Of a DNA stretch of 64,000 nucleotides, positions 59,039 through 64,000 are shown piece after piece. The first letter of the stretch is position 1, and every line of letters starts with the position of its first letter. The stretch covers positions 1,427,803 to 1,491,802 of the forward strand of contig ML996687.1 of the NCBI GenBank assembly GCA_010356995.1, given 5' to 3'. The DNA comes from Trichodelitschia bisporula. Taxonomy: Eukaryota. Both the position numbers and the translations under genes were made by a program. The notes beneath the pieces are model-generated. The model ran no database searches. It worked only from the letters and a program-made list of their open reading frames with translations, and was not told where the DNA came from.

Positions 59039-59628
59039 TGTAATGGAGGGAGGGAACTGTGGGGGGAAAGCAGCGGAGCACGAAGGCTGCTGGGTCCCGA
59101 GTGGTGATACTTATTCGCTGGCGGTGCAGACTCGAGAGATGCATGTCTCGATACTGCATGTCTTATTTGGCGGCGGCGATCGCGGATCGGCAGAGGGGAG
59201 ATGGCTCCGAGACCGAGACTGCGGCCTGCATGTGTATTAGCAGAATGCATCCCGATAAGTCGCCGGGAATACATGGCCTCGATTGAAAGAGACAGTCGAG
59301 TGCAGAGTTGAGGTCGAAGCCTTGCGTCGGCGTAGTCCAGCCAGCCAAGGGGGCTAGCCTTGCGACGAAGTGCCCAGCAAAATCCATGGGAGGCATCCCC
59401 GGTCGGCATATCTGATCGCAGCCACCAATCACAGCATTCGCCCAGCATCACCACCAGATCCAAAGATCCAACATGCAGATCCATCACGCGCCGATCCTCA
59501 AGCGCCGATCCTCGATTCGATTCATCTACTTTTTTTTTACCGTCCAAAATCAGAGCACCCAGCATATAGCATATTCATACAACGAAGCTTACAAGGCATA
59601 CACAAGCAAACAAGCAACACATGCACCT

Positions 59629-61052
59629 CTACCCCCGCTGCCCCCTCGCCTTCGCCTTCCGCCGCCGAACCTCGGCGTTGGCATTCGGCGCCGCCGCACC
59701 ATCTAGCGCCGCGTCCTCCTCGTCTTCAGGCACGTCCGCGTACACCGGCTCCTCCACGTTCTGGCCGAGCAGGCGGCCGACGGTGCTGCGGTACATGAGG
59801 CCGGGTAGCTTGAACAGCACGGTGTCGCGGATGGTCGGCTGAGAGATTTCGTTTTCCTGATCCGCGTTAGCATAATCCTTTACATGGTCCTATGGTTCAA
59901 GGGCTCCCGAAAATGCCATGTCGCCTCAACCCTGCCAGACTCTTGCAGGAGGGGGATGACATGACCTTTTCAGGTCGCTCTTGGCGGTACGTACATCAAG
60001 CAGAAACTCATGCGTCTGCCCATCCTGCGTCTCCTCCTCGAGGAACACATTCCCAACGCTGTCCACAATGAGCACCTTCCCGTTCTGCGCAGTGACGCGC
60101 TTCTTCGCGCCCTGCGGTCCGGTAGCAGGGGCCTCGGTCTCGACGGGCGTGCTGCTGCCCTCTTTCTTCGCCGCCGCTGACTTGCGCGGGTTCTTGGCGG
60201 CCTTGCGGCTCTCGCGCTCCTGCAGGCGCTTCTGCCGGCGATTCCACGCAACCGCCTCGCCCTCGCTCGCCGGCGGGGTGTCGTAGCCCGTCGCAGCTGC
60301 AGAGGTAGCGTCGACGCCCGGGATACCCGCAATGCCGCTCTCGTCGCCCCACGCCATGCGGCGCGCATTGCGGATATACGCAGACACAAACGAGCGCTGA
60401 CGGCGCCAGGAAACGTACAGCGCCGCATAATGCGCCACACCGCCCATGACCACAACGAGCCCGATCAGCACACTCCCAATCCCCGGGCGGAAACGCTCAT
60501 AATAATACCCCGTGCCGCGCCAAGCCGGAAACCCATGCTTGAGAAAGTAATCATAGCGCTCCCTATTCTCGCCGCGGAGCACATTGGCCACGGCGCTGAG
60601 GCGCGCGTACCTATCTTCGGCGGCCTTGTGGGCGGCGGCAATTTCGCGTTGGGTGGGTTTCTTGTGCACGATGGGTTTGCCGGTAGGTTTTTGGCCGGGG
60701 GGAGGTTTACCGTAGTTGGCGATGAAGGATTGGCGGGCTTTGTCTGGGTGCAGGCGGGCGGAGAGACGCCGGTAGGCGCGGTTTATGTCGTCTTGCGATG
60801 CGGAGGGCGGGACGCCGATGAAGGTGTAGAAGGTGCTGTTTGGGCCCTGGTCGGCTTTGAGGGCGTCGTTGAGTTGGAAGATTTCGTGGTCTGGGAGGGG
60901 GGGGAGGGTTAGCTGACGAATCTACAATGGCACACCTACAATTGCACCGGGGTACAGTCGAGGACACGAAGTGACGTACCTTCTTTGGTCCACGCAGCCG
61001 TGAACGAGGTGAAGAACACCAGAACGGCGGTGAGAAAGGCCAGGGACTTCAT
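59629..61052 (-). CDS. ER membrane DnaJ-domain protein (Erj5-like)
   Basis: Signal peptide, WTKEDHEIF, HPD motif, RERYDYFLKHGFPAWRGTGYYY, TM helix; introns 60979-60891 and 59994-59857. Confidence 0.92.
59897..59984. mobile_element. Palindromic dispersed element, copy 3, inside DnaJ intron 2
   Basis: TCAAGGGCTCCCGAAAATGCCATGTC..GACATGACCTTTTCAGGTCGCTCTTG; about 42-bp imperfect stem. Confidence 0.72.
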
Positions 61053-62055
61053 CTTGACGGCTTCTGGCGACGGCTCTTCTCAACGGGTTCTCCTTCTCTT
61101 TCCCTGCCGAATTGCGGTTCCTGTGATCCGCAGCGGGGTTGGTGGGAAAGTCAAGAAAGGCTGTGAGCAAAGCAGAGAGCAGAGAATGGCAAACTAGAGG
61201 AGTGGTTTATGCAGGACCGGGCGAACTTGAGGCTGTCTGTACGTGGGTCGACGTGGCAGCAACAGCTGGAAGACCAATGGGAAGAGTGCAGATGGTGAGA
61301 CTTTAGACCATAGCGTCTTGTATAAAGCGGAGGCGGGGTGGAAGGGAAGAGGACAGGTTTATGTGAGGAGCAGCTCTTCTCGTCCTTGTTGGTGACGAAG
61401 TGATGATGAGCTGACAAGAGAAGGGGGAGAAGTTTTTATTCTCCTCTCCTTTCAACTCAATCAATTTTGAAGTCGACACGGGGAAGAAGATATTGCGGTG
61501 TTGGCGCGCACAAGTTCCAACGCCAAAAAGCCTCTCTCACTCTCCCCCCCCCTCCCGTTGCCCCCGTCCCGACTCCGCTTGACACTTGACGAACAGGGGG
61601 CAAAAGTGTTGGCTCAGCTGAAAGAAGAGAGCGCGAGAGAGACAGAAAGGCAGAAAGTGGAAGCCTAACCATCCTTCTTTTCTCTACAAAACCTTTGCAA
61701 CAACATCAGCTGCACAATTCCCCTTCGTCGACTTCATTCAAGGATCCATCACTTCGACATCGCCTTATCTTTCATTTTCTACTCCTTCTCCTCTACGTGC
61801 TCTCATTATCCAACACTCTAAGGTTCGTAGCTCATTCTGTGCACTTCTCTCCCCCAAACAAGCAACGTTGCCAGTTGGACCAACACTATCCATCTATCTC
61901 TGGCACCTACACCGTCTCGTCTCGTCCAAAGGCTAATCAGGAAGCACCTACCAACAGTTTTCCGCCCAAAAGTTCGCCACCAACAGCTTCCATCCGTCCA
62001 CTATAATAACCCTACACCCCACCCAGCTCCCTGCACTCCTTCTCACATCCCGGCA

Positions 62056-62589
62056 ATGCCTCCGTCGGTGAACATACCCATCGAGGCGCTGACCTCGCGC
62101 TTCAACCTGTCGGGCCGCTTCGAGAATGTGCGGTCAACATCCCTGGCGACGCGCTTCGCCAACCTGCGTCCGATCAGCGAGTTCTTCGACTTCAAGCGGT
62201 TGTCGAAGCCGCAGAACTTTGGCGAGGCTCAGTCACGCGTCAACTACAACCTCGGATACTTCTCCAGCAACTATGCGGCTGTGTTCGTGATGCTCAGCAT
62301 CTACAGCTTGCTGACGAACCTGACGCTGCTGTTTGTCATCTTCCTCGTGGTCGGCGGCATGTGGGGCATCGGAAAACTCGGCGGTCAGGACCTCGACATC
62401 ATGGGGTTCCGTGCCACAACCTCGCAGCTCTACACGGGTCTGCTATGCGTCGCCATTCCGCTCACCTTCATCTCCTCACCCTTCACAACCCTGCTGTGGC
62501 TCATTGGCGCGAGCGGCGTGACCATCATCGGCCACGCATCCTTCATGGACAAGCCCATCGAGTCAGCTTTTTCCGAGGAGGCGGTCTAG
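62056..62589 (+). CDS. YIP3: PRA1 family / prenylated Rab acceptor
   Basis: LRPISEFFD..RVNYNLGYFSSNY, hydrophobic hairpins, GHASFMDKPIE. A 5'-UTR intron at 61823-61957 is possible. Confidence 0.93.
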   Translation: MPPSVNIPIEALTSRFNLSGRFENVRSTSLATRFANLRPISEFFDFKRLSKPQNFGEAQSRVNYNLGYFSSNYAAVFVMLSIYSLLTNLTLLFVIFLVVGGMWGIGKLGGQDLDIMGFRATTSQLYTGLLCVAIPLTFISSPFTTLLWLIGASGVTIIGHASFMDKPIESAFSEEAV

Positions 62590-62615
62590 GTGGTCGGCCG
62601 CGAACTCCACAATAT

Positions 62616-63818
62616 ATGCCCCAATGGGGAAGACCACCGGGGCGCGCGGGGGGGAGGAGTCGAGAGGAGCGAGAGCGATGGGCTGCGCAGCAGGCCCGGT
62701 GGGACGGCGCGCGCTTCGAGGAGGTGACGAGCGAAGACGAAGAGGTGGACCAGGAGGAGATTATGGGGGCGAACGGCGTTCTTTCATTGACTTCCAAGCC
62801 GCATTATGTTTCAGACGAGTTATTTTTCAACGACGGCGACTCCAGATACCCGCGCCGTCGCCGCGACCCTCCTCCCGCCGAGGCACAACTCGCCTACGGC
62901 GAGTACTACAGTTCGGACGAACACGACGACGACGACCCGCGCAGGAGCAGCGCCGGCCGCCGGAATGACGACCACGCGGCCTTTCTCCGCGCCCGCGCCC
63001 TGCACCGCATCGACCGCGCCAAAGCTCAGGGAAAAGGCATGGTCACACTCACCCACGACGAGCTCGAGGCCCTCCGCGGCGGCGCACCCTCGGCACCTTC
63101 CGCACCCCCAGCACTACCATCCCAGGCCCCAGCACCACCGAGCCCGGCCCGCGCCTCCAGCAGCCGCTCCCGCGAGCGCTCTCGCGAGCCTGTACGCGTC
63201 AAGGGCGCACGACGGCCGAGCCTCCTGGCGCCAGCTAAGACGCGCAGTAGCAAGACCGCACCGACGAGCAAGCGCAAGGACTCGGGCGAGAGCGCGCACT
63301 CGGCGTCGGCGCCTTCGAGAGCGCTGACCCCCGTGCAGCCGGCGTATTCTGCGCGGCGGCCTATTGGGTCGGCAGACTCGTCGCCGCGGGCGAGTCGGAT
63401 CCCGTCGGACGCGAGTGCTCGTGCACCTGTGTACCCGTCCCCGCCTGATGTCCGCCCGACATCGAGCAGCTCACGCGCGTCGTCCCGGCCGATTGATTCA
63501 GATTCGGATCATGTTATGCGTGGGAGTCCGGGGGCGTGGCCGGAGCGAGAGTATGCGTATGGCGTGCGGCAGGGGGATGTGGTGTATTCGAGTGTGTACC
63601 GGAGGCCGCCGCCTGCGAACCGCGCGCCGCATTCGGATCCTATCATCGGTGGGAGTGGGCTGGCGAATGAGTATGAGGTTAGTAGCTTTGGGTCGGAGGA
63701 TGGGTCGGATAAGCAAGGGCGTGTGCGGGAGGACAAGACGTCTGGTGGTGATAAAAGCAAGAGACGCGAGCGGGAACGGGAGCGCGACGTGCCCAAAGCA
63801 AGACGACGGCGGCATTGA
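62616..63818 (+). CDS. Uncharacterised low-complexity protein (400 aa) directly behind YIP3
   Basis: Long ORF with coding-like codon bias and a helical core ALHRIDRAKAQGKGMVTLTHDELEAL. ATG at 62616 (weak context) or 62763. Confidence 0.78.
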   Translation: MPQWGRPPGRAGGRSREERERWAAQQARWDGARFEEVTSEDEEVDQEEIMGANGVLSLTSKPHYVSDELFFNDGDSRYPRRRRDPPPAEAQLAYGEYYSSDEHDDDDPRRSSAGRRNDDHAAFLRARALHRIDRAKAQGKGMVTLTHDELEALRGGAPSAPSAPPALPSQAPAPPSPARASSSRSRERSREPVRVKGARRPSLLAPAKTRSSKTAPTSKRKDSGESAHSASAPSRALTPVQPAYSARRPIGSADSSPRASRIPSDASARAPVYPSPPDVRPTSSSSRASSRPIDSDSDHVMRGSPGAWPEREYAYGVRQGDVVYSSVYRRPPPANRAPHSDPIIGGSGLANEYEVSSFGSEDGSDKQGRVREDKTSGGDKSKRRERERERDVPKARRRRH

Positions 63819-64000
63819 CAAGACAATGGGATCTGGAATTGCAGGGTTTGGTGTAGTCCTTTTTACTCTCTACTGTGCCTGGGAATAGACTTGTGTGCTT
63901 CTTCTTCTCCCTTTTCTGGTGGATAGGAGCAATGCATCCGCTAGTATTTCTTTATTCTTCTTTGTTCTAGTGTATAAAAAGCGTGGTGTTGTACGGGATC

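Follow-up and report, generated by a model that had tools for sequence, protein, structure and literature searches.

We found that the YIP3 locus of Trichodelitschia bisporula is best explained as one gene whose single mRNA would yield two proteins through a pseudoknot-stimulated -1 ribosomal frameshift at the heptamer U UUU UCC, a mechanism that we infer for this organism with a probability of roughly 90%. The observations come from the window (the whole 64,000-nt stretch of DNA analysed here) and from related loci, and concern the anatomy of the locus, its conservation, covariation in its RNA and spliced contigs that cross the YIP3 stop codon unchanged. In the proposed mechanism, most ribosomes would translate the 177-aa Yip3/PRA1 protein and terminate at 62587-62589, while a minority would slip one base back at 62568-62574, pass the stop in the -1 frame and continue through a 415-codon tail to a long form of 587 aa. 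Most likely this would be a single slip in which the P-site tRNA-Phe on Phe172 (UUU) re-pairs on U UU, and the stimulator would be a pseudoknot composed of a bulged stem 1 (62577-62608) and a stem 2 (62589-62595 with 62632-62638). The stimulatory role of stem 2, slippage in the P site only, and the shifting itself with its efficiency in this organism are putative parts of this scheme. The locus is most likely the orthologue of Podospora anserina YIP3 (PaYIP3, Pa_1_8470), a recoded gene and not a bicistronic one, and a literature search on the bicistronic reading gave nothing. The preliminary description had put the locus forward as a new candidate, but it is a recoding gene already published (PMC3777964). 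The mechanism, the site and their clade-wide conservation have been known since 2013 (PMC3777964) and were reviewed in 2016, when the PaYIP3 frameshift was described again (PMC5009743); the sole new detail seems to be that the RNA knot reaches further than the piece tested in 2013.

The YIP3/PRA1 coding sequence of the short form occupies 62056..62589 on the forward strand and encodes a protein of 177 aa and 19.5 kDa (Pfam PF03208, E = 5.6e-43), with one match in the organism's own genome. Its stop codon at 62587-62589 is followed by the next same-strand ATG at 62616, 26 nt past the stop, which opens a 400-codon ORF ending at 63818; the ORF coordinates thus agree with the spacing first described (stop at 62589, ATG at 62616, 26 nt apart, 400 codons). 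The second ORF lies in the -1 frame relative to YIP3. This frame had been described as free of stops from 62007 to 63818, and it is indeed open from 62010, but a TAA occupies 62007-62009 just before. A ribosome reading through the YIP3 stop in frame 0 would meet another stop after 45 codons; the earlier remark was that read-through misses the second frame. Counted from the slip site, the -1-frame extension covers 62571..63818 on the forward strand (415 codons), is rich in R, S, P and A, of low complexity and with short conserved motifs, and would bring the long form to a predicted 64.4 kDa. Pfam contained no family for the window's tail or for the database protein P0004, and gave one sub-threshold YL1 match for P0134. 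Openness of the -1 frame over the full length of YIP3 was considered as a signal in its own right and rejected as chance, since 311 of 5000 synonymous permutations of the YIP3 coding sequence show it, in line with the caveat already attached to it. Among 53 distinct related loci, the -1 frame was open for at least 500 nt upstream of the stop in only three, the window's included, and in 29 it was interrupted no more than 40 nt from the YIP3 stop.

In P. anserina, Malagnac et al. described in 2013 a -1 frameshift at U UUU UCC in PaYIP3, with a pseudoknot 2 nt downstream of the slip site whose stem 1 carries a 3-nt bulge (PMC3777964). The two loci are alike in having a 19.5 kDa PRA1 ORF and a longer, domain-less 3' ORF in the -1 frame that overlaps the end of the 5' ORF. 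They further share the heptamer U UUU UCC, a stem 1 that starts after 2 nt, the 3-nt bulge and a 5' UTR intron, and the long forms are of similar mass, 64.4 kDa (predicted) in the window versus 61.6 kDa for PaYIP3. According to the text of the same paper, the frameshift is conserved throughout Pezizomycotina, with Capnodiales and Ophiostomatales carrying +1 variants, only a small stem-loop was predicted for the Capnodiales example, and the long form alone failed to complement the deletion in P. anserina (PMC3777964).

Relatives were obtained from a metagenome scan, in which the best 80 of 92 loci encoding a YIP3 relative were kept, so that the sample leans to close relatives; together with the window's own locus this gave 81 loci, numbered with L. 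The YIP3 stop was reached in 77 of the 81, 60 loci were distinct over 120 nt, and 57 distinct full-length 99-nt segments were available. Frames were counted in the 53 distinct loci whose sequence continues for 300 nt or more beyond the YIP3 stop. The frame that remained open past the stop for 150 or more codons, or until the contig ended, was -1 in 51/53, frame 0 in 1/53 and +1 in 1/53. Conservation of the relative frame, which the preliminary description had proposed to check, was therefore found in these fungal relatives, with the -1 frame long-open in 51 of 53. A tail profile, built from 96 proteins that were nearly all stand-alone tails and included the window's own ORF, matched the -1 frame of 46 loci and the +1 frame of one (L065), and did not match the remaining 6 of the 53. 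Five tail homologues in other Ascomycota were detected among 8000 scored candidates (E = 3e-21 to 5e-12), and the window's tail gave a weak direct match to that of Podospora appendiculata (30 aa, 53%, E = 2e-4). The P. anserina tail was not among the 120 of 177 proteins listed. One locus, L076 (644-742), encodes a YIP3 relative with no slip site, stem or tail, which would represent either a loss or a fungus outside the clade.

The slip site U UUU UCC lies at 62568..62574 on the forward strand, within GCT TTT TCC (62566-62574), and comprises the codons of Phe172 and Ser173 plus the preceding U; it is identical to the PaYIP3 heptamer. Of the 60 distinct loci, 57 carry GCT TTT TCN. Over its last eight codons YIP3 is synonymously frozen, while codons further upstream vary freely: GCT was used for Ala in 58/59 loci and TTT for Phe in 59/60, compared with 20% of Ala and 31% of Phe codons elsewhere in YIP3, and GCG (54/59) and GTC (60/60) were similarly fixed. 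A TGA in the -1 frame precedes the YIP3 stop in 15 of 53 loci, with 25 nt separating the ends of the two codons, and therefore confines entry into the -1 frame to these last eight codons. The heptamer does not fit the canonical X XXY YYZ pattern for tandem slippage; the T-run that had been doubted early on is the published slip site (PMC3777964). Viral -1 sites, in contrast, combine a canonical X XXY YYZ with a 5-9 nt spacer (PMC3777964), and the comparison with them implies no homology. A slip by the P-site tRNA alone, the mechanism favoured by the authors of the 2013 study (PMC3777964), fits the sequence of one locus, L073 (1264-1362), which has T TTT GGC at the slip site and keeps stem 1 and a homologous -1 tail (E = 6.6e-8), because its A-site tRNA could not re-pair there. 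A search of the organism's own genome for a second slip-plus-stem motif found none (1 match at no more than one mismatch, and 2 for the control pattern).

Downstream of the heptamer, the RNAalifold consensus contained a stem 1 on the forward strand at 62577..62608, consisting of a lower part (62577-62580/62605-62608), an upper part (62581-62584/62598-62601) and a 3-nt bulge (62602-62604), and its loop contains the YIP3 stop. The lower part starts 2 nt and the upper part 6 nt after the heptamer. Upper stem 1 was 100% paired with three G-C to A-U changes, and the pair flanking it was A-U in 21, G-C in 19 and unpaired in 15 loci (n = 55). Between the window (GCGG/CCGC) and P. anserina (GTGG/CCAC; PMC3777964) upper stem 1 shows a compensatory change. 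The pseudoknot stem 2 (62589..62638, forward strand) joins the loop strand 62589-62595 to 62632-62638, 43-49 nt past the YIP3 stop, with 7 Watson-Crick pairs in the window. A possible stem 3 (CCCC/GGGG, 62619..62629, forward strand) would lie between stem 1 and the 3' strand of stem 2; it is tentative, with 92.5% of cells paired and little real covariation, and it is missing in one clade of loci. SARS coronavirus pseudoknots are H-type knots with a third stem in the loop (PMC1110908, PMC3575852), and given the tentative stem 3 this is a possible likeness only.

Covariation was evaluated in alignment A1, which comprised 55 loci and omitted L021 (insertion) and L076 (no element). RNAalifold returned stem 1 only for these 55 loci. 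When the pseudoknot of stem 1, far stem 2 and stem 3 was named explicitly, 93% of cells were paired and the covariation was 0.135, which 0 of 500 shuffles equalled and slid controls (at most 0.057) did not approach; the shuffling takes no account of relatedness, and the sequences tested are those from which the structure was derived. Far stem 2 alone gave a covariation of 0.217 against at most 0.123 for slid controls, a count distorted by L072, L074 and L081, which are mis-registered by one column. Stem 2 was also re-anchored on its motif by script, a procedure by which the core pairs are partly paired by construction, and tested in 56 loci (L021 included, only L076 lost). Of the two informative outer pairs, one held in 51/56 loci (G-C 30, G-U 13, A-U 7, C-G 1) and the other in 54/56 (U-A 50, C-G 3, U-G 1). 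On the 56-locus tree, C-G is found in two places apart from each other and A-U in several; because only 22 of 52 inner branches of this tree have good support, leaving most of it unresolved, the numbers of independent compensatory changes are rough. The partner strand shifts with insertions and deletions while pairing is kept, lying at +40, +42, +43, +46 or +49 past the stop, at +64 in L021 and, doubtfully, at +34 in L073. The shift in L021 (1183-1300) is associated with 21 in-frame nt inserted downstream of stem 1 and ahead of the stem 2 strand; 7/7 pairs are kept, and on visual inspection the inserted stretch can form a longer hairpin.

The same pairing was recovered with no alignment. In 56/56 loci the stem 1 loop paired better with the stretch from +36 to +60 than with that up to +35, with mean pairing energies of -12.8 (far) versus -4.9 kcal/mol (near), the near stretch being shorter (13-16 versus 25 nt). 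The far stretch also beat every 25-nt control window downstream in its own locus in 46/56 cases (control mean -6.2, n = 648). The two stem 2 strands are also coding sequence in the -1 frame, and their conservation therefore reflects protein constraint in addition to structure. Two other pairings were evaluated and rejected: a near stem 2 within the first 35 nt, which was our guess at the published pairing and may differ from the one drawn by the authors (73% paired, covariation 0.086, lower than three of six slid controls), and a kissing-loop in which a hairpin GCCCC/GGGGC encloses the stem 2 strand (81% paired versus 92.5% for the small hairpin, with a register that shifts between loci). Folded with ViennaRNA, in which pseudoknots are not possible, the window's element was no better than its shuffles (z = -0.39 to 0.04 and -0.89, -0.54), and Rfam over 61500-64000 found nothing at the element and one sub-threshold match elsewhere (E = 0.12). 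Eight loci (L061, L069, L071, L072, L074, L079, L080 and L081) have a different loop and linker and no CCCC/GGGG hairpin; their -1 tails match the profile weakly or not at all, and their slip site and both stems are kept.

These pairings incline us to the view that the true stimulator is longer than published, in that the loop forms 6-7 bp with a strand that lies 40-64 nt beyond the stop, and often a third hairpin sits between them. According to the 2013 paper the PaYIP3 reporter inserts carry the pseudoknot, and they extend to +35 past the stop (PMC3777964), whereas stem 2 in the window ends at +49. In most loci the stem 2 strand lies at +43, eight nt beyond the end of the published insert. 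The stem 2 described here probably differs from the one in the published drawing. The P. anserina insert (35 nt past the stop) aligns gap-free with L049, in which the far strand is at +43. Furthermore, database models from several Sordariomycetes start with M-G-K-T-I or T-I-E-A, which is the peptide of the stem 2 strand in another frame, and these peptides give indirect support to the presence of that strand in Sordariomycetes. In the openly accessible literature that was searched, YIP3 together with a pseudoknot was found in PMC3777964 only.

The published reporter of the PaYIP3 signal gave 1% shifting in yeast, its pseudoknot did not stimulate the IBV slip site, and a trans-acting factor was proposed (PMC3777964). 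The 1% may be explained by an insert that ended at +35, before the stem 2 strand as placed from the relatives. If the longer stimulator is right, the 1% efficiency, the failure with IBV and the proposed trans-acting factor would be truncation artefacts, and the refined pseudoknot would be a cheap account of the low efficiency left unresolved in the text of PMC3777964. Native shifting might then occur at a far greater rate, and melting of the lower stem inside the ribosome would leave a spacer of 6 nt, a normal length.

The longer knot would also bear on the +1 variants. In Capnodiales and Ophiostomatales, YIP3 has the same gene and tail with the tail in the +1 frame (PMC3777964), whereas the window is of the -1 type. 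L065 (675-773) is of the +1 type, with TCT TTC TCC and its tail in the +1 frame (E = 1.4e-30). It has lost lower stem 1 and kept upper stem 1 and the far stem 2 (7/7 paired, one G-U). Its frame, its UUUCU and a C-terminus like those of P0010 and P0015 suggest that L065 belongs to the Capnodiales/Ophiostomatales +1 group. Stem 2 is kept even in this locus, and if the longer stimulator is right, a single conserved knot in a cellular gene would underlie shifting in the -1 as well as the +1 direction.

The preliminary description offered four options for the locus. A frameshift fusion, the published mechanism (PMC3777964), was upheld, while reinitiation, alternative splicing and an internal promoter fell as conserved mechanisms; these three are unsupported because the ATG is present in only 22/47 loci, a structured RNA straddles the stop, and there is no splice joint at the junction. 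Among them reinitiation fares best, though we consider it very unlikely: after termination, ribosomes would restart at 62616 or at a near-cognate codon and produce a free 400-aa protein, alone or beside the fusion. The RNA element contains the ATG at 62616..62618 (forward strand), which had been flagged for its closeness to the stop (26 nt), and in some viruses stop-restart can be driven by structured RNA. The position could be placed in 47 of 60 loci (13 of 60 could not be placed), where the codon was ATG in 22, GTG in 15, TTG, ACG and GGG in 2 each, and TCG, TAC, GCG and CCC in 1 each. ATG or a near-cognate GTG, TTG or ACG was thus available in 41/47 relatives, but no usable start was found in 6/47, and P. 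anserina has TCG where the window has ATG (PMC3777964). Among the loci the first in-frame ATG lies up to 632 nt downstream, behind conserved motifs of the tail. Reinitiation also leaves the frozen U UUU and the fixed -1 frame unexplained, and the wild-type P. anserina allele gave an 88 kDa GFP fusion band by western blot (PMC3777964). Hence reinitiation may be a minor extra where an ATG exists, and is ruled out as the conserved route.

Frameshifting was further compared with joining of YIP3 and the tail in frame by alternative splicing or editing, which we rate as more improbable still. Contigs came from X1 and X2, two runs of one sample whose RNA status is a guess; they contain spliced RNA, because three introns with canonical ends are absent from them. 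One is the 5' UTR intron of YIP3 (GT..AG, 61823..61957, forward strand), whose joints occur in X1 and X2 contigs. Two acceptors, 61944 and 61957, lie 13 nt apart and both were seen in contigs; there is no ATG within 61600-62055. An X1 contig without the 5' UTR intron spans 61956-62637 across the YIP3 stop, and the next covers 62608-63998. In the X1 and X2 contigs of this sample, which drop rare variants, the junction showed no joint, indel or other letter, although three other introns nearby are visible; this indicates that unspliced and unedited RNA crosses the YIP3 stop. The crossing contigs do not prove a single transcript, because one also spans the divergent DnaJ gene. In P. anserina, 12 cDNAs were unspliced and unedited at the junction (PMC3777964). 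The splicing option gains from databases that hold 242 long PRA1 proteins with the tail (311-2000 aa, E of at most 1e-20), but among the matches listed the fusion junctions differ from model to model, like bridges drawn by gene finders. Two separate genes with a second promoter inside YIP3 is the least probable option, for though an ATG opens the second ORF here and annotations often present it as stand-alone, the fixed -1 frame, the unconserved ATG, the RNA structure across the stop and the contigs crossing it all stand against it.

A single frameshifted gene has consequences for annotation, since databases either bridge it with inconsistent invented introns or split it in two. The long PRA1 models (P0008-P0127, 120 of 242 listed) join YIP3 to the tail at many different points, which is consistent with invented introns. 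Tail-only models often carry the name prenylated Rab acceptor 1. The top tail clusters in the ESM Atlas (0.85, 0.84) were auto-named prenylated Rab acceptor 1 as well; they are below the reliability mark, the name probably comes from fused models, and we rejected this assignment. Protein-extending programmed -1 frameshifting is rare among non-retroviral cellular genes of eukaryotes.

Head-to-head with YIP3, a gene with a DnaJ domain (PF00226, E = 1.7e-10) occupies about 59509-61036 on the minus strand, and from the contigs its introns at about 59856-59993 and 60891-60979 have been removed by splicing. Of 30 related loci that extend 2.5 kb or more upstream (not de-duplicated), 29 had a DnaJ match, which in L072, L074 and L081 lies downstream of YIP3 instead.
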